This document shows positions 1,993-31,189 of a stretch of DNA of 64,000 nucleotides, one piece after another. Origin of the DNA: a virus (lineage: Duplodnaviria > Heunggongvirae > Uroviricota > Caudoviricetes). The stretch lies in the IMG/VR virus record IMGVR_UViG_3300032294_001260. One strand, given 5' to 3'. Positions within the stretch are counted from its first letter, which is position 1. Each line of letters opens with the position of its first letter. The translations under genes and the position numbers were made by a program. The notes beneath the pieces are model-generated. The model was given only the letters and a program-made list of their open reading frames with translations, searched no databases and was not told where the DNA came from.

Positions 1993-2311
1993 TAAATTCT
2001 TTCTCCGCATTCTCGACAGCCGAACTAATCATATTACCGATGATGTATGAAGTAAACTTTTGAAATTTTTTCGAGTCCACTTTACAAAGATTAGGGTTCG
2101 CAATAATATTGATATTGTATGACAATTCCGAGTCTGTAGCCATAACCATATCAGAAACTTCAAAAATTACGTCAGGGTACTTTTTTAATACCCTGATAGC
2201 AAATGCCTCAGTGTTATTTACATCCAGCATGTACTCATAATGTTTGTCGAGTTTGATGAATTTCTTGGCATACCAAAAATTATATTTCGCTCTTAAATTT
2301 TCAAACATCAT
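1805..2311 (-). CDS. Hypothetical protein at the gp40 position; C-terminus overlaps gp41 by 188 nt
   Basis: Lies between uvsX and gp41 as T4 gene 40 does; identity inferred from synteny only. Confidence 0.5.
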   Translation of the reverse strand: MMFENLRAKYNFWYAKKFIKLDKHYEYMLDVNNTEAFAIRVLKKYPDVIFEVSDMVMATDSELSYNINIIANPNLCKVDSKKFQKFTSYIIGNMISSAVENAEKEFNENRNVDSVKLDAERVLHEESVTVSEERVPTRKPRKKSVRGNKEVRPDVQQSSARSGSGDQP

Positions 2312-3353
2312 CAGTCTCCTCGGCGCTCAAATTACCCGCTAGAGCAGAACTGAATTGGTAGTTGTTACGAATCCATTCCTTGAATGTTTCATCAGTCAAA
2401 ATACTATCCCAAAACTCGGGACATTCTGTATCAGCAATACGCCACTTCTTAGCGTCAACTTCGCCCGTGGCAGTATCGACCTTTGCATACCAACCGACAT
2501 TGGGCTTGGTTACATGACCCGACTCAAGTGCCATATCAAGAAGACCACTGTACTTACTAATACCACCATCGAAGCGAACAGTGACAGGGATACGAGACTT
2601 CTCTCTAAGATAACGCGACTTCTCCACATTAATAATAAAGTTGTAGCCAATCAAATCCTGACCATCCTTTTCCTGTTGGCGACCGAGAATATAGATGTTA
2701 TCGGCTGAATAATAGGGACCTGTTCCGCCACCGACAATATCCTTGGGATACATACCAATCTCTTTGTAGGTATGATTTACAACCACCATCGGAATGTCCT
2801 TTAGGGTGAGGTGTGGAGTCACCATACGGAACAGGGATTTTATTTGCTTGGCACGAGTCATGTCACCGACTGACTTTTGCTCAAGGGCATCTTCGACTTC
2901 TTTCGTTGACGCAAGGTTGCCGATAGAATCGACAACAACCATCACACGTTCACCGCGTTCAATATTCTGAAGTTGCGCCATGATATCAAACTTCAGTTGC
3001 TCAACATCCGTGATTGGAGTATGAACGACGCGATCCGTATCAATACCAAATGAAGTGAAATAGTTTTGTGGGGTGCCGAACTCGGAGTCATAGAAAAGAA
3101 CAACTGAATCGGGATACTTGTCTTGATATGCCTTTGCCATCAATAGACTGAATGCAGTCTTGAAGTGCTTTGAAGGACCAGCCCACATCGTCAACCCTGG
3201 CGTAAACCCACCATCAAGATCACCAGAGAATGCGACATTGACTACAGGAATGCTAGTCTGGATCATATCTTTAGCCGCAAAGAACTTAGACTTTGCAAGA
3301 ATTGCGGTGTCTTTAATCGTACTATTTTTCTTCAACTTATCGAGTAGGCTCAT
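2301..3353 (-). CDS. uvsX: RecA-like recombinase UvsX
   Basis: AGPSKHFKT, FYDSEFG, VVDSIGNL, VVNHTY, GGTGPYYSAD, VEKSRY. Confidence 0.96.
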   Translation of the reverse strand: MSLLDKLKKNSTIKDTAILAKSKFFAAKDMIQTSIPVVNVAFSGDLDGGFTPGLTMWAGPSKHFKTAFSLLMAKAYQDKYPDSVVLFYDSEFGTPQNYFTSFGIDTDRVVHTPITDVEQLKFDIMAQLQNIERGERVMVVVDSIGNLASTKEVEDALEQKSVGDMTRAKQIKSLFRMVTPHLTLKDIPMVVVNHTYKEIGMYPKDIVGGGTGPYYSADNIYILGRQQEKDGQDLIGYNFIINVEKSRYLREKSRIPVTVRFDGGISKYSGLLDMALESGHVTKPNVGWYAKVDTATGEVDAKKWRIADTECPEFWDSILTDETFKEWIRNNYQFSSALAGNLSAEETDDV

Positions 3354-11768: not shown

Positions 11769-11989
11769 TATACCTTCTCCACGAGTTTTGAAAGTGTGTA
11801 ATCTGCAATCTTTGCTCGAATCATCGTAGGAATATCCGTGAAAGGATCTTCCAAGAAATAAGAGCAACCTTCCGTCCAATTATTATACTTTACAAACTTC
11901 GCAAAGTCAATCATATGCTTGCGATTGCGAGGATTGAACTTCACCCTCTCCTTCGGAGCAAGAACAGATCGTCGATATTCATTTGTCAT
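11768..11989 (-). CDS. Conserved phage hypothetical protein
   Basis: RVKFNPRNRKHM...CSYFLEDPFTDIPTMI. Confidence 0.65.
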   Translation of the reverse strand: MTNEYRRSVLAPKERVKFNPRNRKHMIDFAKFVKYNNWTEGCSYFLEDPFTDIPTMIRAKIADYTLSKLVEKV

Positions 11990-12004
11990 TGTATTAACAC
12001 CTTC

Positions 12005-12286
12005 TTAAATGCTATTAAGTTTTCTCTTCGCGAAACCCACTACATCTTCAACATCACCAGATGAAATGCTTTCAAGTGCTTTGAAAAGTGTGTCATAGTT
12101 CTGCTGCAACTTTATGTATTTCCGCTCAACCTCTTGAAGAGTTCTAACTTGTGTTTTGAACTGCTCAAGATTGTCGTAAATGACAGATTGACGATCAACC
12201 AAGGTTTTATTGTCTTTCTCAAGACGATCAATTTGCTGATTGAGTCTTGAGATAACTATATCTTTTTCATCCAACAAACGGCTCAT
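12005..12286 (-). CDS. Coiled-coil hypothetical protein
   Basis: Heptad-like 93-aa ORF. Confidence 0.6.
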   Translation of the reverse strand: MSRLLDEKDIVISRLNQQIDRLEKDNKTLVDRQSVIYDNLEQFKTQVRTLQEVERKYIKLQQNYDTLFKALESISSGDVEDVVGFAKRKLNSI

Positions 12287-12490
12287 TTAATTGTCCTCTA
12301 ATTCAACTATTCGAAATGGAATATAAGTTTCGACTGTTAATTTGCACTCATAACAGTGGTGTCGAGAAATTGATCGCCCAGTCAGTCCATGTTCGAACAC
12401 AACTTCCTCATCGGGGTCGTAACCGTGAAACTCGTGGCGAGGCGAAAAGGAATACATCACGATCACGAAGTTGCAGCGGGGACAGTTCAT
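12287..12490 (-). CDS. Zn-ribbon mini-protein
   Basis: MNCPRC...HCYECK; ATGA overlap at 12487-12490. Confidence 0.6.
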   Translation of the reverse strand: MNCPRCNFVIVMYSFSPRHEFHGYDPDEEVVFEHGLTGRSISRHHCYECKLTVETYIPFRIVELEDN

Positions 12491-12732
12491 TGACCCCTCG
12501 CACGGATGGCGACGACGCATTCAAGAGCGGTTCCTGTCTCAAGCCCTTTCCTGGAATTCCACACGTTGTCGCATACCTTCTCACACGCCTCCCGCTCCTT
12601 CTTCCGCTCAACCTCAGTCACTCGGTCGATCAGGTAGCGCAATTGGTTCGGTGCTAGCGGGTAATGAAAATCCTCTGTCGGCACCACCTTGAATGCCTCC
12701 AACATCAACACCTTCAGTTCATCGTCACTCAC
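12487..12732 (-). CDS. Mini-gene, EREAC/AIRAR family
   Basis: KEREACEKVCD...VAIRARGQ; GTGA overlap. Confidence 0.65.
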   Translation of the reverse strand: MSDDELKVLMLEAFKVVPTEDFHYPLAPNQLRYLIDRVTEVERKKEREACEKVCDNVWNSRKGLETGTALECVVAIRARGQ

Positions 12733-12998
12733 GGCTTCGCCTCCTCCGCTCTAGCGATGCGCTCAATCGCAAATTTTGCCCACATTTCTGCATCCACCAA
12801 CGAAGCCGCAGCCCTCGCCGCCGCCCACGCCGCCGCCCACGCCGCCCAATCCGTGTCCCCCGCCGCTGCCCCCGCCGCCGTAGCCGACTCTGGTGTGCGC
12901 TCTCGGCACATCTCGCGCCACTCAAGACCATAGCCGCGAGCGTCGGCAATCGGCTGATGCGCTTCCAGCGCCGCCCACATTTCGTCAAGGTCGGTCAT
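12729..12998 (-). CDS. Mini-gene, DLDEMW Ala-rich family
   Basis: MTDLDEMWAALEAHQPIADARGYG...MCRERTP...AAWAAAWAAA. Confidence 0.7.
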   Translation of the reverse strand: MTDLDEMWAALEAHQPIADARGYGLEWREMCRERTPESATAAGAAAGDTDWAAWAAAWAAARAAASLVDAEMWAKFAIERIARAEEAKP

Positions 12999-13138
12999 GA
13001 TTTCTTCTTCCTTTCTTTCTTGTAGTAATCGTTGAGTGTTTTTTCCCATTGCTCGGGTGTCGGGTCGCGAAAATACCCTTTCGGGGGGTTTGAATTGCGA
13101 CCTCTTTTAAAGTCAAAATACGCTGCTCTAAAACTCAT
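12995..13138 (-). CDS. 47-aa basic mini-protein (not in ORF track)
   Basis: MSFRAAYFDFKRGRNSNPPKGYFRDPTPEQWEKTLNDYYKKERKKKS; ATGA overlaps at both ends. Confidence 0.55.
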   Translation of the reverse strand: MSFRAAYFDFKRGRNSNPPKGYFRDPTPEQWEKTLNDYYKKERKKKS

Positions 13139-13209
13139 AATTTTTTAACTTCTTTAGCAAAGGGCTGATGCTTTTCAAGACGCGCCCACATTTCGTCAAG
13201 GGTGCTCAT
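13135..13209 (-). pseudogene. Truncated 24-aa copy of the DLDEMW family
   Basis: MSTLDEMWARLEKHQPFAKEVKKL*; first 17 codons match the family, then it diverges; ATGA-coupled on both sides. Confidence 0.65.
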
Positions 13210-13472
13210 TCGCTTTTCCTCGCACGGATGGCGGCGGCTAAATCAGTTAGCGCAGAAAAACACTCTCTTTGGGCGTCATCCCACGCCCGACCACCATTCG
13301 GTCTCATTGATTCAGCCATTAGCGCACACGCCTCCCGCTCGGTCTCTGCGACAAGGGCGGCGAACCGTTCAAGTTCTGACTGCCCCGCAGTCCAGTAATT
13401 GTTGTAAAGGAACTCCGTCGGCTCGGCCATTCCCGCCTCCCGCGCCAGTCGGATTACATCTTCATTATTCAT
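13206..13472 (-). CDS. Mini-gene, EREAC/AIRAR family
   Basis: DVIRLAREAG...LERFAALVAETEREAC...AAAIRARKSE. Confidence 0.7.
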   Translation of the reverse strand: MNNEDVIRLAREAGMAEPTEFLYNNYWTAGQSELERFAALVAETEREACALMAESMRPNGGRAWDDAQRECFSALTDLAAAIRARKSE

Positions 13473-13684
13473 TTACTTTCTCCCCCTGCACGGATAGCGG
13501 CGGCGATGCACCGCCCGTAATTCGTTTCGGGATGGGCGGTGTCCCATGCATCGGACACCTTTGCACACGCCTCGCGCTCGGCCTTTGCAACAAGGGCGGC
13601 GAAACGATGAAGTGATTCGGCGCTGTAAGCATCATCAGCAGACCAAACCTCTTGCGCCAGTCGGATAATGTCGTCGCGGGTCAT
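13469..13684 (-). CDS. Mini-gene, EREAC/AIRAR family
   Basis: MTRDDIIRLAQEV...AEREACAKV...AAAIRAGGESK. Confidence 0.7.
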   Translation of the reverse strand: MTRDDIIRLAQEVWSADDAYSAESLHRFAALVAKAEREACAKVSDAWDTAHPETNYGRCIAAAIRAGGESK

Positions 13685-13914
13685 GTCTCCCCCCTCGCAC
13701 GGATAGCGGCAGCGCAGTCTGCAATAGCAGCCAACAACATAACTTCCTCTTGTATAGGTCGGGTTTGGCGCAAATACTCATCTCGCAAATTTTCTTCACA
13801 CACCTTCGCACACCCCTCCCGCTCGGCTGCGACAGCAAGATCAACCTGTTCAACAATCAGATCAACCTGCCAGCCTGCAATCTCTGGGCATAGTTTTTTA
13901 ATCCAGTCTTTCAT
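13681..13914 (-). CDS. Mini-gene, EREAC/AIRAR family
   Basis: MKDWIKK...AEREGCAKVC...AAAIRARGET; ATGA overlaps. Confidence 0.65.
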   Translation of the reverse strand: MKDWIKKLCPEIAGWQVDLIVEQVDLAVAAEREGCAKVCEENLRDEYLRQTRPIQEEVMLLAAIADCAAAIRARGET

Positions 13915-14135
13915 TTGCTTTCTCCCCTCGCACGGATGGCGTCGGCGCAATAAATCGGATCAGGGCTGCGCGGCTCAAATACAAACTCCTTTGATATCCT
14001 TTCGCACACCTCAGCACACGCCTCCCGCTCGGCTGCGGCAACTAGGGTGGCGAAACGATGAAGTGATTCGGCGCTGTAAGCATCATCAGCAGACCAAACC
14101 TCTTGCGCCAGTCGGATAATGTCGTCGCGGGTCAT
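13911..14135 (-). CDS. Mini-gene, EREAC/AIRAR family
   Basis: First 87 nt identical to those of 13469-13684; ends DAIRARGESK. Confidence 0.7.
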   Translation of the reverse strand: MTRDDIIRLAQEVWSADDAYSAESLHRFATLVAAAEREACAEVCERISKEFVFEPRSPDPIYCADAIRARGESK

Positions 14136-14167
14136 TTACTTTCTCCCCTTGCTTTGAAATAACTCAT
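14132..14167 (-). pseudogene. Vestigial 11-codon cassette MSYFKARGESK*
   Basis: Retains only the GGGGAGAAAGTAAATGA junction shared with 13469 and 13911. Confidence 0.5.
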
Positions 14168-14181
14168 TAGAATGTGACCTC

Positions 14182-14679
14182 TTAAGACCCTGTACGGAGG
14201 AAAAGGTACTCGCTTCCCTGTGCAAAGCCTTCAATGAACACATGGTGGTTGTCACCACTCTGCTTGATCGCAGCATCAGCAGCAACCCAAAGATCAGCCC
14301 AAGTTATGCCCGCAATGGGAACATATACAGGTTTTTCACCGAAGTGATCCTTGTACACAAGAGTCTGCGCACCTCGGTAGGGGTGCGGAGAATTCAAATC
14401 GTCAACTTCAAACATGCTCCAGATAGTGGAGAGTCCGAGTTTATCACCCACATCATCGTAATGATCACTCTTCGTAAACTCATCATCGTCGTCGGAATCA
14501 TCATCCAGATCATAAGATCTATCCAGATCATAAGATAGTTCGCCGAGTTCATGTGCAGCAAGAATCTCATGAACCTGTAGGACCGAAATACCAACAGATT
14601 TGGCAATCTCAATCTCATTCATGCCATCTTTGCGATACATCTCGATGACGTCAATTTCAATTGTACTCCAATGCCTCAT
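14182..14679 (-). CDS. Hypothetical protein: HTH-like N-terminus, acidic linker, second domain
   Basis: EIEIAKSVGISVLQVHEIL; YDLDRSYDLDDDSDDDDE; C-terminal ITWADLWVAADAAIKQSGDNHHVFIEGF. Confidence 0.6.
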   Translation of the reverse strand: MRHWSTIEIDVIEMYRKDGMNEIEIAKSVGISVLQVHEILAAHELGELSYDLDRSYDLDDDSDDDDEFTKSDHYDDVGDKLGLSTIWSMFEVDDLNSPHPYRGAQTLVYKDHFGEKPVYVPIAGITWADLWVAADAAIKQSGDNHHVFIEGFAQGSEYLFLRTGS

Positions 14680-14903
14680 TAGAACGGCGCTCCATCAGTT
14701 TCGGGAATCCGATTCAAGTCTTCCTGCGTCTTGCGATCACCGATCACCAAGAGCAGATGACACGCACGCTCAAGACGTTCAGCAAAATCGTAACAGTTCT
14801 TGGCGCTCAGATCATACTGCGTCATCGTGTTCGCAAGAACATGATCGACACCGTTGACGAGATCAATTGCTTCAGAAAGCAGAGTTTCAGTTTGCTTCTT
14901 CAT
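14679..14903 (-). CDS. Hypothetical protein
   Basis: 74-aa ORF, AAGGA RBS. Confidence 0.6.
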   Translation of the reverse strand: MKKQTETLLSEAIDLVNGVDHVLANTMTQYDLSAKNCYDFAERLERACHLLLVIGDRKTQEDLNRIPETDGAPF

Positions 14904-24789: not shown

Positions 24790-24989
24790 CCTTTTATTTG
24801 AAGATCCCCATCAAACCGTCTTATGATTTCATCTGGATCGTTCTCGGCACCTTGCATAGCCTGTTTGAAGTCCTTGTATGCAGTTTCCATATCATTGTGA
24901 TACTGATTCAGTTCAGTTTCATCGATCCAGATGAGACCAGGGCTGGTCACAGTGATCTTGGGTTGGTTAGGAATTTTAATTTTGTTCAT
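24786..24989 (-). CDS. Hypothetical protein
   Basis: Plausible start MNKIKIPNQ at 24989; the longer track ORF is an alternative-frame extension. Confidence 0.5.
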   Translation of the reverse strand: MNKIKIPNQPKITVTSPGLIWIDETELNQYHNDMETAYKDFKQAMQGAENDPDEIIRRFDGDLQIKG

Positions 24990-25275
24990 CGCTCGCCTCC
25001 GCTTTATTGATGAAATAAATCGCCATTCTTGACCACACCGCTGCGCGGGTCGGCGCACACCCCGCATCCGCCTCCACAACCTCCGCCACAGACCACGCCG
25101 CTGCCACCGCCCCATCCTCCACATATTTTGCAGCACAAGCCGCCTGCGCCGCCGCCTCCGCTGCTTCGGGTGTGCGCTGCTCGCACATGATCTTCCAAGC
25201 CTCGCCATACCCGCGAGCGTCGGCAATCGGTTGGTGCTCTCCTAGGCGAGTCCACATCTCGTTTAAGTCGGTCAT
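24976..25275 (-). CDS. Mini-gene, DLDEMW Ala-rich family
   Basis: MTDLNEMWTRLGEHQPIADARGYG...MAIYFINKA. Confidence 0.7.
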   Translation of the reverse strand: MTDLNEMWTRLGEHQPIADARGYGEAWKIMCEQRTPEAAEAAAQAACAAKYVEDGAVAAAWSVAEVVEADAGCAPTRAAVWSRMAIYFINKAEASDEQN

Positions 25276-25490
25276 TTGCCCCCCGCTTTATTGATGAAAT
25301 AAATCGCCACCGCCACCGCCACCGCCGCCTCCGCCTCCGCCCACGCTAGTTGTGCCGAGGCGCACGCCGCCCTCGCTGCCTCTTCTGTGCGCTGCTCGCA
25401 CATGATCTTCCAAGCCTTGCCGCAGCCACCCGCATCGGCGAACGGCTGGTGTTCTGCGAGACGAATCCACATTGTGTCAAGATTGTCCAT
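25272..25490 (-). CDS. Mini-gene, DLDEMW Ala-rich family
   Basis: MDNLDTMWIRLAEHQPFADAGG...VAIYFINKAGGK. Confidence 0.7.
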   Translation of the reverse strand: MDNLDTMWIRLAEHQPFADAGGCGKAWKIMCEQRTEEAARAACASAQLAWAEAEAAVAVAVAIYFINKAGGK

Positions 25491-25503
25491 ATTTTATCCT
25501 CTC

Positions 25504-25965
25504 TTACCAACTAGAATGGTATTCAAACTCCCAATCCTCTGAAAGAGCAAGAGCGCCGTCAATAATCTTCACCGTGCTTTCAAGATCACTGAAATAAAAC
25601 TTGTTGATTTCAGTGTTGCCGAAGAAGAATCCAGAAACGGGCGGCAAAAGTTTTTCGGCAAGGCTATTATCTGCCAAAACCTGTTCACAAAAACTCTTCA
25701 GTGCCAACAATTGTATTCGGCTGACATAATAGTTAGCGCAATTATCCTTGCCACCCTGTACGTTTTGAACGAACCAATTGTGGATTGCGTTTGCCTTGCG
25801 CCAGTATCCAACCTGAGCAGAAATCTGTTCAATGGGGTTGTATTCTTCGATGACGTATGCCTTCAATTCAGGAAACAACTCCATCATTGCTTCCTTCTTT
25901 ACCCTGTCAGCGACATCGTAATCAGAGAGATACCTTTTAGCATTCAAAAACATATCCAATCCCAT
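25504..25965 (-). CDS. Conserved phage hypothetical protein
   Basis: MGLDMFL...VGYWRKANAIHNWFV...GFFFG...YHSSW. Confidence 0.75.
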   Translation of the reverse strand: MGLDMFLNAKRYLSDYDVADRVKKEAMMELFPELKAYVIEEYNPIEQISAQVGYWRKANAIHNWFVQNVQGGKDNCANYYVSRIQLLALKSFCEQVLADNSLAEKLLPPVSGFFFGNTEINKFYFSDLESTVKIIDGALALSEDWEFEYHSSW

Positions 25966-25974
25966 GATAATCTC

Positions 25975-26145
25975 CTATTTGTGCCTTTCGGCAAAAGTTT
26001 CCATCCAGTTCTTAACGAGATCACGAGCCTCATGCTTGCTGACACCAAAAGTTTCAGCAACATACGGTGCGGCACCAAACATATTGATTGCACCAGTCTC
26101 GCGAAGATCGTCCAGAAACACATTCACTTCTTCTTGCAATGTCAT
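25975..26145 (-). CDS. Conserved phage hypothetical protein
   Basis: FLDDLRETGAINMFGAAPYVAETFG; likely start MTLQEE. Confidence 0.65.
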   Translation of the reverse strand: MTLQEEVNVFLDDLRETGAINMFGAAPYVAETFGVSKHEARDLVKNWMETFAERHK

Positions 26146-26146
26146 A

Positions 26147-26365
26147 TTAATTCCTCTTTGCTCGGTAAATGCTGCCAAGTTGCCCCGACTCGTTGCTGTT
26201 AGTACATTCCAGTCGATGGTCACTGGCTTTGGGGCATCGTTTGTTGCCGCAAATTGGACATACGATCATTTGGGTGGAACTCAACGGAAGAAATCCGTCG
26301 GGACCACGCAAATCCTGTTCCTTGATGCAGCGATGGCACACGCATATTTCTGCAAGATCACTCAT
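26147..26365 (-). CDS. Cys-rich Zn-binding mini-protein
   Basis: CVCHRC...MIVCPICGNKRCPKASDHRLEC. Confidence 0.65.
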   Translation of the reverse strand: MSDLAEICVCHRCIKEQDLRGPDGFLPLSSTQMIVCPICGNKRCPKASDHRLECTNSNESGQLGSIYRAKRN

Positions 26366-26594
26366 ACCTTTTGATATACTCGACCGCTGCCGCATCCGCT
26401 GCCGCCGCTGCCGCCTCTACCGCATACGCCGCATCCGCTGCCGCCTCTGCCGCATACGCCGCCCAAGCCGCATCCCATGCCGCATCTGGTGTGCGCTGCT
26501 CGCACATGATCTTCCAAGCCTTGCCGTAGCCACCCGCATCAGCGAACGACTGATGCGCCTCAAGCAGCGCCCACATTTCGTCAAGGTCGGTCAT
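26358..26594 (-). CDS. Mini-gene, DLDEMW Ala-rich family
   Basis: MTDLDEMWALLEAHQSFADAGGYGKAWKIMCEQRTP. Confidence 0.7.
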   Translation of the reverse strand: MTDLDEMWALLEAHQSFADAGGYGKAWKIMCEQRTPDAAWDAAWAAYAAEAAADAAYAVEAAAAAADAAAVEYIKRYE

Positions 26595-26836
26595 GGCTTG
26601 TCCTCTGCTTTGTTGATAGACTCGATTGCGGTCATTGCCCACGCCGCCGCCCACTCTGCCGACGTTGCCGCCCACTCCGCATTGTTCACAGCCCACTCCG
26701 CCGCACGCTGTGCAGCAAACGCCGCCCGTGGCGTCCGCTCTCGGCGCATCTTGGCCCATTCAGTACCGTAGCCGCGCTTGTCTGCGATCGGCTGATGCGC
26801 CTCAATACGCGCCCACATTTCGTCAAGAGTACTCAT
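26591..26836 (-). CDS. Mini-gene, DLDEMW Ala-rich family
   Basis: MSTLDEMWARIEAHQPIADKRGYG...AIESINKAEDKP. Confidence 0.7.
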   Translation of the reverse strand: MSTLDEMWARIEAHQPIADKRGYGTEWAKMRRERTPRAAFAAQRAAEWAVNNAEWAATSAEWAAAWAMTAIESINKAEDKP

Positions 26837-27204
26837 GGCTTGTCCTCTGCTTTGTTGATAGATTTGATTGCCAATTCCACAGCCTCCGCCGCAGCCTCCG
26901 CCGCAGCCTCCGCCGCCCAAGCCGCCGCATCTGCCGCCGCATCCGTTGCAGCAGCAGCAGCCTCCGCTGCCGCCTCCGCCTCCGCCTCATGATACCGCAT
27001 CGCCGCCTCCGCCTCCGCATACGCTGCCTCATACGCTGCCGACGCCAACTCCTCTGCCTCTGCCGCCGCCGCTTTCGCCGCCGCCTCCGCTGCTTCGGGT
27101 GTGCGCTCTTCGCACATTGTTTTCCACTCAAGACCATATCCTCGCTGGTCGGCAAAGGATTGGTGTTCTGCGAGGCGCATCCACATTTGGTTAAGGTCTG
27201 TCAT
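26833..27204 (-). CDS. Mini-gene, DLDEMW Ala-rich family
   Basis: MTDLNQMWMRLAEHQSFADQRGYG...AIKSINKAEDKP. Confidence 0.7.
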   Translation of the reverse strand: MTDLNQMWMRLAEHQSFADQRGYGLEWKTMCEERTPEAAEAAAKAAAAEAEELASAAYEAAYAEAEAAMRYHEAEAEAAAEAAAAATDAAADAAAWAAEAAAEAAAEAVELAIKSINKAEDKP

Positions 27205-27235: not shown

Positions 27236-28588
27236 CTAAATCGTCTTCGCAAGGGTTTCTAAAGCCTTGAGTTTGATCTGTTCATCGGTCCACCCCTCTT
27301 GCTTCAAATTGTCGATTTCAGTAGCACATAAAAAGAGCGATCTACTCCCGTAAGTAAAAGTTACACTATAGTCATATGAATTTTTGTGCACACCCAACTC
27401 GCTCAAATCAACAGTTGGCTTGGCTGCGGCTTTCAGTGTCGCTTCCGCATCAACCTTCGTGTACAAATCCACGAACGCAGTCTTGGTGTCGCCATCGAAT
27501 CGGTTCAAGCACATTTCGATTGCCTTCAGTCGATTGCCGAAGATCGAAAATGCCTTGGCAATATGCACAAGGCGACGGGTCGAGATAATCTCATCGACTG
27601 CACCATCCGCGAAAGACTTTCGGATAATATCAGCCCAAGTGATTAGATGCTCGATGAAAGTAGCATCAGTAAGACCAAGAGTCTCAAAATTCTTCTCAAG
27701 AATTTTGCGCTCGGTTGCTGCTGGCGGATATTCCTGTTCAACCGTAATAGCGAATCGTTCAAGGAAAGCATCATTCAGCACATTCGTGCCGATGAATCGA
27801 CCGTCATCGCTGCCCTTGCCCTTCGTGTTCGCAGTCGCGATCACGTTGAAACCAGCGGCAGGATGAACAACCTCACCCGTCTTCTTGTCGAAGTATGGCT
27901 TGCCTTCAAGAATAGGCTGTAAGCACAGAATGTCTTCCGTGCCGAGATCAGTCTCGTCAAGAAGCAGTACAGCGCCACGACGCATCGCGGTGATGACTGG
28001 ACCCTCGCGGCGAATCGTGTTGCCGTCAACAAGTTCGTAAGAGCCGATAAGATCAGATTCATCGGTGCGCTTGGTGATGTTGACGCGAATCAACTCACGC
28101 TTGAGCGCAGCACAAACTTGCTCAATCATGAACGTCTTGCCGTTACCAGAAAGACCTGTGATGTAGATAGGATAGAAAATGCGAGACTTGATAATGTCAC
28201 GCAGATCATTATAAAACCCGAACGGAACATACGTTTCGTTGCGATCAGGCACAAACGACTCGGTGACGTTTTGCGCACGCTTCGCCGCGATGTTCACAAC
28301 CTGCGCAACCATCGCGGGAGCCGCAACTTCAGCAGCAACAGTCTGCTTCTGCTTCGGAGCAGCGGGAGTAATGCACCCTACATGCTTCGGGACGATGTTA
28401 TACTGACCGTGATTTACCTTGCGCTCGCGCAAGATAAAATATGGATAACCCTTAACGCTGTTGTTCTCGTCCTTGACAAAAGAATCCAATTCCTTGAGAG
28501 AAATAGTTTCCTTATCGAAATACGCAGTCAACTGTTCAAGTATTTCGATGCGCGAATCGAGAGTATCATAATTAGATTTTCTGGGCAT
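27236..28588 (-). CDS. cobS: MoxR-type AAA+ ATPase (phage CobS-like)
   Basis: GLSGNGKT, TDESDLIG, LLLDE, TANTKGKG, NDAFLERF, ISTRRL. Confidence 0.88.
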   Translation of the reverse strand: MPRKSNYDTLDSRIEILEQLTAYFDKETISLKELDSFVKDENNSVKGYPYFILRERKVNHGQYNIVPKHVGCITPAAPKQKQTVAAEVAAPAMVAQVVNIAAKRAQNVTESFVPDRNETYVPFGFYNDLRDIIKSRIFYPIYITGLSGNGKTFMIEQVCAALKRELIRVNITKRTDESDLIGSYELVDGNTIRREGPVITAMRRGAVLLLDETDLGTEDILCLQPILEGKPYFDKKTGEVVHPAAGFNVIATANTKGKGSDDGRFIGTNVLNDAFLERFAITVEQEYPPAATERKILEKNFETLGLTDATFIEHLITWADIIRKSFADGAVDEIISTRRLVHIAKAFSIFGNRLKAIEMCLNRFDGDTKTAFVDLYTKVDAEATLKAAAKPTVDLSELGVHKNSYDYSVTFTYGSRSLFLCATEIDNLKQEGWTDEQIKLKALETLAKTI

Positions 28589-28602
28589 TTTATTACTCAC
28601 TG

Positions 28603-28714: not shown

Positions 28715-31123
28715 TTACGAAACAGCCAATTCTTCAGCGAGTTTTGTCAACAGAAGTCGGTTGGTCTTCTTGCTATTGACAGTCTTGGTAAACTCGCGAA
28801 CCATCTTATTCTTGGTCATATCACCAGTGATCACGAGTTTTTGGTCGGTGATGTTGGTATTCGGAAGAACAACATAGAAATACTTCTCATAACCAATATT
28901 ACTGGTCACAAAGTGGTTATTTTCTTTGAAACTTTTATGAGCCAATCGACTTTCTTCATAGGACTTGCCATACATCAAGTGCTTGAAATTTTCTCTGTAG
29001 TATTTCTGATCGCCAAGATAAAAACCGATGTGCTTGCAGCCAGTAACATCAGCAACAAGTTGAGTGATGGCGCTCTGGTAAGCAGAAGCACCACTATGAG
29101 GCAACTTGATCTTTTTCTTGGTTTTCTTGTCTACAAGATACACAACAGATTTTAATACCTCTGACCAATTCGTGGTTTGAGGATGAACCAAATTCATGCG
29201 GCCTTCACCATCAGTCAGGTAGACAACGTTACAAACATCAACTTTATTGTCGCGCTGAAACTTGGTCACGATATCACGGGAAGCGAGCAGAGTCTCAATA
29301 AACGGGGTTGCGTTCAAACCAAACCCAGATGATTTTGGAAGATATCCATTGGATCCGATGGCAACAACACACATCGCGTTGAAAGCACGACGATATTGTG
29401 TATGTGACAAAGAAGAACCAATCAAGTGCTTCAGATGAAAACTACTAGCATCGAGTCCAATATCAACATTAGGGTTGCACACAAACTGACTACTTTTCCT
29501 TCGCATTTCGCGCAGTTTTTCGTTGTCGTAAAAATCATTAGAGAACCCATAAACGTCAAACGGAACCTTGGCAAGTTTGCAGAAGGACGCAAGCACAAGC
29601 ATCTGCTCAATCGTGTTGCGGAGAATATCTGTCATCGAGCCAGACATATCAACAAACATGATAAAGCCATGATTCTTGCCTTTCGGCACAACTTCGATCT
29701 TACGGAACAAGTCGTTACTGAAACGGTACTTGTGTAGTACATTCATGTTCAGTTCGCCAGTTCGAGCAGTCTGAGTTCGAGCATATTCGCTCGCCTTCTT
29801 GCGCATCTCAAATTCCTTCAAGATATGCATAATGACTTTCTTGTTGCTGGCATTAAATTTGCGTGTGGATTCCTGAGCAAGTTTTTCATATGCGATGCTG
29901 GTTACACGATAGCGTTCTGCCTTTTTGGTGGCATCGTCTCGGAAGTATTTTTCTAGGTCTTTGATGACTTCCGTGTTAGGAAGAATGATGTTGTCAAGAA
30001 CAGCATCAGGCAAGTCAAACATAAGGACTTTACCAGATTGATTGACAAGTTCCCGCTCACGGCGACGGAAATTGCGGTCAGTTACTGACTGCGGTCCATC
30101 ATTTTGGTCATCTTCGTCACTGTCTTCATCGTCATCTTCGTCGCTGTCTTCATCGTCATCTTCGTCACTGTCTTCATCGTCATCTTCGTCGCTGTCTTCA
30201 TCGTCATCTTCGTCGCTGTCTTCATCGTCATCTTCGTCGCTGTCTTCATCGTCATCTTCGTCGCTGTCTCCGCCTGAACCACTAGATTCAGAATTAAAGT
30301 CTGAATCATCGGAGTCGTCGGAGTCGTCGGACTCATCAGAATTATCTGGATCATATGAGTCGGAGCCATCAGACGCTTCATCTAATTCCGATTCGTCGTC
30401 CGATTCATCGCTTTCGCCCAGATCGTAAGAATCTTCTTCTTCTTCGTCTTCGTCTTCGGAGCCTTGAGAGTCATCGGAAATTTCTTCATTTTGAAGATTT
30501 CGCATCTGCTCTAGAATCTGATCTTGAAGATCGTCTTGGTTTTGGACTTTGTTTTTCTCGTGTGTCTTCACATAGTCATACACACGACCAGCGATGTCAA
30601 CAACCTGATCCCAAGTTTCAGCGGCATCAATTTCTTTGACGATTTCACGCTCGAAATCGTTGAACTCAACAACGACATGCGCGCCCATCTTAAACCGAAG
30701 ATTTACACGGTCAATAAGATTGAGTTTGTTCAGGTCGTCGAGTTTCTTGATGCCGAAGAAATCGCTTTCATACAGCGAAGCATAAGCACGAGCAAAGGAC
30801 TTGGAGAGTCCAGGGAACTTGCGCTTGATAAGTTTCTCGATGCGAGCATCTTCGATGACGTTCAAAAAATCTTTGAACTTCTTTTCGTTCTGGGTGACTT
30901 GATCATGCCACCCGTGCTCGGGGGTGTTCAGAGCATGACCCACTTCGTGACCCGTGAGCAAATCGTAAAGATCGCCGTCCATGTCCTTCCATACTGGAAG
31001 AACCATCGTGCGAGCCTTGAGATCAAAATATGCGGTCTTGACGTTTTGGTGCGAGACCGTGATATTCTCGGAAGCCAAAAGTTTGGCGAGAATAGATTTG
31101 GAAGACTGTAAATTAGTTTTCAT
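28715..31123 (-). CDS. CobT-like partner: HExxH N-domain, acidic linker, VWA domain
   Basis: LTGHEVGHAL, NVIEDARIE, MIDAS FVDMSGSM, YLTDGE; leaderless ATG at 31123. Confidence 0.85.
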   Translation of the reverse strand: MKTNLQSSKSILAKLLASENITVSHQNVKTAYFDLKARTMVLPVWKDMDGDLYDLLTGHEVGHALNTPEHGWHDQVTQNEKKFKDFLNVIEDARIEKLIKRKFPGLSKSFARAYASLYESDFFGIKKLDDLNKLNLIDRVNLRFKMGAHVVVEFNDFEREIVKEIDAAETWDQVVDIAGRVYDYVKTHEKNKVQNQDDLQDQILEQMRNLQNEEISDDSQGSEDEDEEEEDSYDLGESDESDDESELDEASDGSDSYDPDNSDESDDSDDSDDSDFNSESSGSGGDSDEDDDEDSDEDDDEDSDEDDDEDSDEDDDEDSDEDDDEDSDEDDDEDSDEDDQNDGPQSVTDRNFRRRERELVNQSGKVLMFDLPDAVLDNIILPNTEVIKDLEKYFRDDATKKAERYRVTSIAYEKLAQESTRKFNASNKKVIMHILKEFEMRKKASEYARTQTARTGELNMNVLHKYRFSNDLFRKIEVVPKGKNHGFIMFVDMSGSMTDILRNTIEQMLVLASFCKLAKVPFDVYGFSNDFYDNEKLREMRRKSSQFVCNPNVDIGLDASSFHLKHLIGSSLSHTQYRRAFNAMCVVAIGSNGYLPKSSGFGLNATPFIETLLASRDIVTKFQRDNKVDVCNVVYLTDGEGRMNLVHPQTTNWSEVLKSVVYLVDKKTKKKIKLPHSGASAYQSAITQLVADVTGCKHIGFYLGDQKYYRENFKHLMYGKSYEESRLAHKSFKENNHFVTSNIGYEKYFYVVLPNTNITDQKLVITGDMTKNKMVREFTKTVNSKKTNRLLLTKLAEELAVS
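30107..30268. repeat. 24-bp tandem repeat, about 7 copies, encoding (DSDEDDDE)n
   Basis: ctgtcttcatcgtcatcttcgtc(a/g) units differing only at one synonymous site. Confidence 0.92.
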
Positions 31124-31189
31124 GGAGCCATTATCCCTTAAAATCAACAAAAAGTAAAGGGAAAAAACTCTAATGAAATCAATAACTTA
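31121..31189 (-). promoter_or_regulatory. IHF-box/sigma70 promoter module, copy 4
   Basis: AATCAATAACTTA 31177-89, 18-nt gap, TTTACT-17-GATAAT, 6 nt, ATGAAAAC. Confidence 0.8.

Follow-up and report, generated by a model that had tools for sequence, protein, structure and literature searches.

Botstein's modular theory describes phage evolution as modular, proceeding through conserved linkers. Here we describe a chain of small, overlapping genes at 14167-12287 on the minus strand of a 64,000-nucleotide (nt) stretch of viral DNA, IMG/VR record IMGVR_UViG_3300032294_001260 (called the window, at its full length, throughout). The window belongs to a T4-like myovirus, recognised as such from large open reading frames (ORFs) for a gp43-type DNA polymerase, a gp41-type helicase, a gp46/47-type nuclease, a tail sheath and a CobS-like ATPase. 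We consider it probable that the chain is an acquired, tandemly expanded array of two small-protein families, whose modules have been reassorted at conserved coding blocks and whose translation starts are encoded in gene tails.

The promoter-early stem-loop (PeSL) cassettes of T4-type phages are intergenic elements made of a sigma-70-like promoter and a terminator stem-loop (Arbiol et al. 2010, PMC2839356; Comeau et al. 2014, PMC4122927), and their mini-circles have been demonstrated experimentally (PMC2839356, PMC4122927). The array resembles them in that short repeats among small non-essential ORFs of a plastic T4-like region would act as exchange points without an integrase and would also carry an expression signal for the adjacent gene. 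Unlike PeSL cassettes, the array, which is known from sequence alone, has repeats that are the coding sequence of one protein family together with a translation signal (a Shine-Dalgarno (SD) sequence and an ATGA overlap), and it contains no intergenic DNA and no promoter or stem-loop at its junctions. A site scan found no promoter-like or terminator-like stem-loop sites at any chain junction, and the sole good promoter-like site lies outside the chain, at 11910-11882. In addition, one of the array's joints lies in the middle of a gene, so that half-genes are exchanged. The chain was also considered as a phage moron and rejected, since no promoter and terminator of its own were found and the deviating G+C content (GC) is its only moron-like trait.

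In temperate phages, mosaic segments are bordered by short diverged homology, and phage Rad52-like recombinases tolerate divergence (Martinsohn et al. 2008, PMC2327257; De Paepe et al. 2014, PMC3945230); De Paepe et al. found no exchange between virulent and temperate coliphages (PMC3945230). The array shares with these lambdoid homeologous modules the placement of borders at short diverged homology, and one donor-like contig, L091, encodes Erf and YqaJ. The units exchanged are of kilobase size in the lambdoid case, whereas here they are pieces of 120-230 nt at 90-99% identity, shared between a T4-like phage and Erf- or PolA-type phages. An integron cassette array likewise strings together small genes that lie on one strand and lack promoters, with the junction recurring and the content varying between elements. 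It differs in that the spacers of 0 nt in our array leave no room for attC hairpins, in that the array's joints lie within coding sequence, and in that its genes are paralogues, not unrelated cargo. No integron attC sites (imperfect inverted repeats) were found, the nine junctions being 4-nt overlaps with no stem-loop between chain genes. No integrase domain was found in the flanking ORFs tested, and no IntI or attI was noticed near the array, although no whole-genome scan with an IntI model was made. We regard the feature as a variant of linker-mediated modular shuffling embedded in coding sequence, which extends the PeSL/linker concept from intergenic transcription signals to signals inside coding sequence.

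The gene chain and its two families

The chain consists of ten minus-strand ORFs (14167-12287) joined at nine junctions by eight ATGA overlaps and one GTGA overlap, with no DNA between the genes. Because only 8 of the 65 minus-strand ORFs of at least 90 amino acids (aa) outside the two GC-rich islands of the window have such a stop/start overlap, nine out of nine far exceeds the backbone rate. An earlier sequence-only reading of the window, made without database searches, had described (A/G)TGA overlaps throughout, as we find; its count of eleven mini-genes is reached only by including the next gene, 12286-12005, which abuts the chain with TAA directly followed by ATG and without overlap. The features of the chain are as follows (L-numbers are our handles for other loci and contigs).

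14132-14167, minus strand: 11-codon ORF MSYFKARGESK; its last 21 nt are a famA 3' stub (ARGESK-stop) that carries the SD sequence and the ATGA for the next gene
13911-14135, minus strand: g2, famA, 74 aa, a chimera; nt 1-87 (14135-14049) match g4 and nt 94-216 (14042-13920) match the L093 gene
13681-13914, minus strand: g3, famA, 77 aa; 90.6% nt identity over 224 nt to the L092 gene
13469-13684, minus strand: g4, famA, 71 aa; 89.6% nt identity over 230 nt, upstream tail included, to L091
13206-13472, minus strand: g5, famA, 88 aa; junction, N module and central block 85% identical to L096, C module of another type
13135-13209, minus strand: truncated famB copy, 24 aa; homologous to full-length copies only in its first ~53 nt
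12995-13138, minus strand: 47-aa ORF, GC 0.42, following the famB stump
12729-12998, minus strand: full-length famB gene, 89 aa; its tail AEEAKP encodes GGAGGAGG ahead of GTGA
12487-12732, minus strand: g9, famA, 81 aa, GTG start
12287-12490, minus strand: 67-aa CxxC...CxxC ORF; 86% (aa) and 87% (nt) identical to the gene directly after famA in L096 and L097
14049-14135 and 13598-13684, minus strand: exact 87-nt N-module repeat in two copies
14001-14064, minus strand: central conserved block of g2 (RFAxLVAAAEREACAxVC); equivalents at 13795-13839, 13550-13613, 13311-13374 and 12568-12612
13911-13940, minus strand: tail and junction of g2 (AIRARGESK, AGGGG as SD, ATGA); equivalents at 13681-13707, 13469-13498, 13206-13232 and 12487-12510

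Genes of the chain sort into two paralogous families, famA (five copies: g2, g3, g4, g5 and g9) and famB. The famA consensus runs from MTRDDIIRLAxEAG through a variable stretch to LERFAALVAAAEREACAKVCE, and through a second variable stretch to CAAAIRARGxx. The famB proteins begin MTDLDEMW..HQPxAD.RGYG..W..MC..RT and end ..INKAExKP; within the chain the family is represented by the full copy at 12998-12729 and by the 24-codon stump at 13209-13135, which is the truncated DLDEMW copy of the sequence-only reading, its overlaps present. The AlphaFold (AF2) model of g2 is a three-helix protein with a predicted local distance difference test (pLDDT) score of 87, in which the conserved head, central block and tail of famA form helices 1, 2 and 3; the residues E36, R37, C40, R68 and R70 are invariant in the family. 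The AF2 model of famB is all-alpha (pLDDT 89). Neither family has a sequence match in Pfam, PHROG, NCBIfam or the PDB, and neither model has a significant fold match in the PDB.

Five ORFs of the chain have the C-terminus AIRA(R/G). The word ATCCGTGCRRGG occurs five times and GGGGAGAAAGYAAATGA three times (13469, 13911, 14132), each with an expectation of 0.00 in shuffles, so both the endings and the junction word that had been pointed out earlier are genuine. The identity of two gene beginnings is also exact: counted from the ATG, g2 and g4 do not differ in their first 87 nt, and they agree at 93% over 134 nt (14135-14002 and 13684-13551). The GC is 0.51-0.53 in the 12-14 kb region versus ~0.41 for the window, in line with the earlier remark on core genes; gene by gene, it is 0.50-0.67 in members of the two families and 0.33-0.44 in the 11-, 24-, 47- and 67-aa ORFs. 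The 47-aa ORF has one homologue, 89% identical and of equal length, located inside another chain of overlapping small genes. The 11-codon ORF does exist with an ATGA junction, but the name of empty cassette does not suit it: it is a 21-nt 3' remnant of a famA gene, preceded by five codons of unrelated sequence, and it forms the left border of the imported block. Possibly it serves as a short relay ORF from the upstream gene, whose stop is at 14182, to g2.

Translation starts encoded in the tail

The tail was surveyed in famA genes from 80 unrelated IMG/VR contigs. AIRARG followed by two to three residues ends 77 of 86 famA genes, and the stop codon lies inside ATGA in 76 of 83 and inside GTGA in 4 of 83. 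The second Arg of AIRARG is encoded by AGG in 67 of 83 genes; the first is AGG in 1 of 83 and otherwise uses five other codons. AGG followed by GGN places AGGGG 6-9 nt ahead of the next ATG. At 101 of 122 famA genes versus 415 of 1513 other ORFs on the same strands, the gene ends in an ATGA from which an ORF of 30 codons or more begins, and an SD-like word falls within the last 17 nt of 99 of 122 famA genes versus 363 of 1513 of the other same-strand ORFs. Genes of famB end likewise (..AAAGCGGAGGAnAAnCCATGA), with 27 ATGA and 4 GTGA among 35 genes. The earlier statement that the tail doubles as ribosome-binding site and start of the next gene, made for this chain, thus extends to the family at large.

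Because the gene downstream of the tail varies between loci while the tail itself stays constant, the tail can be described as a portable ribosome-binding site. We take the tail's length and its one codon choice to be set by this role, and the AIRA part to belong to helix 3. In the chain, ATGA or GTGA overlaps are accompanied by an SD sequence 5-9 nt upstream, inside the preceding ORF, which is the arrangement of a translationally coupled polycistron, and the downstream ORFs are presumably translated by coupling. The chain genes would then be translated as a single polycistronic unit, in which the conserved C-termini (...AIRARG-x-x in famA, ...KAE-E/G-K-P in famB) would place the SD sequence (AGGGG or GGAGG) 5-9 nt before the overlap and every gene would bring the translation-initiation region for whatever gene follows. 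Since the conserved end supplies the next gene's start, any recombinant would stay expressed. A 4-nt ATGA stop/start overlap with an SD sequence inside the upstream gene is a well-known means of translational coupling (Huber et al. 2019, PMC6728339). The array, in which coupling is deduced from the letters, differs from the known cases in that its SD sequence lies in a tail that is also a conserved protein motif, one that defines the family and is constant whatever follows it.

Half-gene exchange and the explanations weighed

In order, a famA gene comprises a head, an N module, a central block, a C module and a tail. At the protein level the choice of N module does not depend on that of the C module: N modules of g2 type are joined to many C types of ~20% mutual identity, the g3-type C module (80-93% identity) is joined to more than 15 unrelated N modules, and 13 N clusters are paired with at least two C types. 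All four combinations of two N and two C modules are found, namely N2-C2 (g2), N3-C3 (g3), N2'-C3 (P0003) and N3-C2 (P0011). The clearest single case is g2 itself, in which nt 94-216 are identical at 122 of 123 positions to a gene (L093:270-506) of a PolA/primase phage, whose contig has a GC of 61% and comes from a sequencing run unrelated to this one. The crossover interval is nt 88-93 (14048-14043), at the 5' edge of the central block, and the right-hand border of the exchanged segment lies inside the tail. The suggestion that gene halves had been shuffled without breaking coupling is borne out by this chimera and by the reassortment of N and C modules.

Other pieces of the array also match contigs of other phage types, four in all, with a GC of 53-61%. 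The g3 match is on the PolA-type contig L092, and the g4 match (window 13708-13483 against L091:5243-5472) is on the Erf/YqaJ/Cro-type contig L091, of 57% GC. The stub, N module and central block of g2 match L091 at 92.5% over 146 nt, in an alignment that begins at 14152, inside the stub of the 11-codon ORF. The junction, N module and central block of g5 match L096 over 178 nt, and the homology of the 67-aa gene (12490-12287) to L096 begins exactly at the ATGA. In other phages there are two independent gene sets in which famA genes whose C modules are unrelated precede one and the same downstream gene (90-95% identical); the switch in identity lies inside the ~30-nt tail. L049 carries a paralogue pair that, like g2 and g4, shares the N module only (98.5% over 136 nt).

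For a census of breakpoints we used 25 non-redundant partial segments of at least 93% identity that contain variable or neighbouring sequence, excluding matches of the central block alone. Their 37 internal end-points fall in the head (14), the central block (14), the tail (6) and the upstream junction (3), with 0 in the variable modules. As the variable modules make up 32% of gene-plus-junction length, uniform placement would give zero end-points there with a probability of ~0.68^37, a figure that treats as independent events that are incompletely so. The borders of the replacements therefore coincide with a repeated short motif, in this case the coding blocks. The sequence-only reading had expected breakpoints in the junction motif; this is right for tail/head junctions, but the main intragenic joint is the central EREAC block, which it had not singled out.

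The central block is 80-93% identical at the nt level, over 45-60 nt, to dozens of unrelated contigs. We compared its codons in 66 non-redundant famA genes with the codon usage of the same genes as background. C40 is TGT in 63 of 66 (background 24%), E38 is GAG in 61 of 66 (39%), A39 is GCG in 55 of 60 (26%), the block's K is AAG in 50 of 52 (49%), its V is GTG in 50 of 50 (29%) and C44 is TGT in 44 of 55 (24%). Unlike the two central-block Cys, the tail Cys follows the background (TGC in 42 of 45, background 76%). The fixed codons give a GT-rich word of ~30 nt with the consensus GAG CGN GAG GCG TGT GCG AAG GTG TGT, and the central block appears to be under constraint at the nucleotide level. 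A pairing or recombination signal, an RNA-level element (one without an Rfam match) or homogenisation by frequent exchange may each be the cause.

The explanation we favour is that the array was gained horizontally and expanded in tandem, and that it encodes small alpha-helical accessory proteins in a plastic part of the distantly T4-like genome of a freshwater phage. The three conserved blocks, similar between unrelated phages, would serve as joints for homologous or homeologous recombination, and N modules, C modules and whole genes would reassort among phages and paralogues with frame and coupling kept. The unit of exchange is accordingly the half-gene, ~90-125 nt between conserved coding blocks. 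The module architecture, the family-wide SD/ATGA tail, the reassortment, the chimeric gene and the confinement of breakpoints to blocks can be read directly from the alignments; that the blocks are the substrates of recombination we infer from them, and naming the acting recombinase would be an inference of the same kind. Because the closest relatives of the array's pieces are in GC-rich phages of other types, one of them with Erf, and because 40 relatives of the backbone lack both families, most of the shuffling probably took place elsewhere and the array was imported. Segments 90-99% identical in a T4-like (virulent-type) phage and in PolA- and Erf/Cro-type phages of higher GC point to recent cross-lifestyle exchange in freshwater, and exchange thus appears to cross the virulent/temperate divide. 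To this we would add, tentatively and as something on balance rather unlikely, that famA (and more simply famB) consists of recombination-ready modules, with a portable ribosome-binding tail and a nucleotide-selected central pairing or recombination signal of ~30 nt, and that swaps of half-genes among phages that are not related, whether virulent T4-like or temperate-like, serve to vary an accessory protein that may interact with the host.

Several observations weigh against the favoured explanation. No close relative was found that could show gain, loss or reordering within the lineage. The low-GC ORFs of the chain (11, 24, 47 and 67 aa) stand outside the junction scheme of both families. The central blocks within this genome are only 62-86% identical to one another, with exact shared runs of ~15-17 nt, and runs of this length are short for efficient T4-type homologous recombination. 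Moreover, selection that removes random joints in the variable modules would also confine breakpoints to conserved blocks.

This last point leads to the most serious alternative, that the blocks are conserved through protein function and the need for an SD sequence alone and are no substrates for recombination, the mosaicism being the product of random illegitimate recombination followed by selection for intact three-helix proteins. The correspondence of head, central block and tail to the helices of a confidently predicted fold with five invariant residues agrees well with this, chimeras within the variable loops could be selected against, and the exact identities inside the blocks are short. 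We nevertheless hold it to be unlikely, given that none of the 37 end-points lies in a variable module, that the 123-nt segment exchanged has both of its identity switches precisely at the edge of a block, and that the fixed synonymous sites of the central block, such as the TGT of C40, are beyond the reach of protein function alone.

A dedicated, integrase-free cassette system, in which UvsX recombines the stop/RBS/start junctions (RBS, ribosome-binding site) and cassettes that are empty or truncated persist as placeholders, was the explanation offered by the sequence-only reading. The phage backbone does encode the recombinase:

2301-3353, minus strand: UvsX-type recombinase of the phage backbone, with RecA_N and T4_UVSX_C domains

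Its presence in the window, the exact recurrence of the junction words and the coincidence of breakpoints with junction and central blocks all suit such a system, as does the exact 87-nt repeat, which suggests a recent event in this genome and which we read as the only sign of one within this lineage. However, the junction design and the module exchange are found equally in Erf-type and PolA-type phages that are not T4-like, and it is in phages of these types that the closest sequences to the array's pieces sit. The junction is no separate site but the conserved coding end of one protein family with an SD sequence, which disposes of the dedicated cassette site; the supposed empty cassette is a stub at the edge of an acquired block, and relatives of the phage do without the array. 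No observation links UvsX itself to the exchanges. A UvsX cassette system is for these reasons improbable in our view, and the acquired, reassorted array remains the explanation that we prefer.

An assembly artefact, in which reads from several co-occurring phages with the same family were collapsed or mis-joined, might be feared of a metagenome contig with repeats of 87-134 nt (near read length) and a family abundant in the same kind of sample, but it is very improbable, as two assemblies are fully concordant over 20.3 kb, frames and overlaps are intact through ten genes, T4-like backbone flanks the island on both sides in one contig, and L049 has an analogous N-module-only pair. The second assembly is a public ENA scaffold of 71,620 bp that matches the window at 100% over a stretch of 20,270 nt, repeats included; it argues against an assembler-specific misassembly of the 87-nt repeat, although it may derive from the same reads.

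The families and the phage beyond the chain

A profile search of metagenomes (E<=0.001) places famA in 8254 representative clusters at 50% identity, and a word-indexed search retrieves more than 7400 proteins; famB has at least 91 homologues. The family famA is nearly absent from cultured phages. Searches with tblastn using g2 and the famB gene gave no phage match, and g5 gave one weak match, to Phage DSL-LC05. Among 185,579 species genomes, famA is found only on 37 contigs of metagenome-assembled genomes, mostly of freshwater Burkholderiales and other Betaproteobacteria. A very large family, found almost only in uncultured freshwater phages and outside Pfam and PHROGs, is thereby brought to notice; famA is a candidate diversifying accessory protein and might lend itself, as a natural model, to measuring how much homology phage recombination needs, and its near-identical segments are documented between a T4-like phage and temperate- or PolA-type phages.

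The Atlas look-alikes of both families are viral hypothetical proteins. An EncFtn-like lead from the Atlas was weak and found no confirmation, and an assignment of famB as Imm5-like (Atlas score 0.84-0.86) was set aside for want of confirmation in Pfam. In other phages the genes of these families lie in early or replication regions: Erf/YqaJ/Cro are the neighbours in some, and elsewhere the genes sit upstream of PolA and primase or follow a repressor. From this context one might guess, and it is only a guess, that famA and famB are early-region accessory or host-takeover proteins.

Multiple copies of famA are common, 30 of 80 loci having two to five, and on the PolA-type phage contig L092 ~18 mini-genes, five or more of which are famA, follow one another with 4-nt overlaps. 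Some units are fused or duplicated internally, as 25 of the 150 best representatives match the famA profile twice; such units would be the products expected from unequal exchange at conserved blocks. Two heads or two central blocks in one ORF are seen in L096:5001-5444 (P0047), P0029 and P0105. The zinc-ribbon-like gene represented in the window by the 67-aa ORF 12287-12490 seems to travel with famA as a pair (L096:5441-5644, L097:2375-2578), and in L034 the gene after famA begins with a similar MNCPICN motif.

The DNA polymerase of the phage is at most 52% identical to that of any GenBank phage, the closest being those of cyanomyoviruses, and the backbone looks like an undescribed freshwater T4-like lineage. 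The array has zero near-DNA matches among 50,697 GenBank phage records, and an exact-protein look-up with the famB gene returns only the second assembly of the same phage. With the 165-aa gene of the flank as query, relatives were found at 10 viral and 30 metagenomic loci, all at most 57% identical and with little synteny, and both famA and famB are absent from all 40; a search for relatives through the downstream flank gave no matches. The other half of the genome, ~130 kb in total, seems to be L118, a scaffold of 58 kb that comes from the same sample; the ENA assembly of the source sample is ERZ28593791 (scaffold_72 and scaffold_122). There are no tRNAs in the window and no Rfam families in 11800-14800.

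Copies of famB are also found away from the chain. Six lie on L118 (4900-8220), and others in a second GC-rich island of the window, for a genome total of at least 13 famB units at three places.

24976-27204, minus strand: second GC-rich island, GC 0.50-0.58, with five famB paralogues and three other small genes
26833-27204, 26591-26836, 26358-26594, 25272-25490 and 24976-25275, minus strand: famB paralogues of the second island

The second island is adjoined by a CobS-like AAA ATPase (phrog_249; 27236-28600, minus strand) and a large peptidase-like protein (phrog_459; 28715-31150, minus strand). Between its famB copies lies an 82-aa Cys-rich ORF (CxxC ... CPICGNKRC) at 26147-26395, also on the minus strand.

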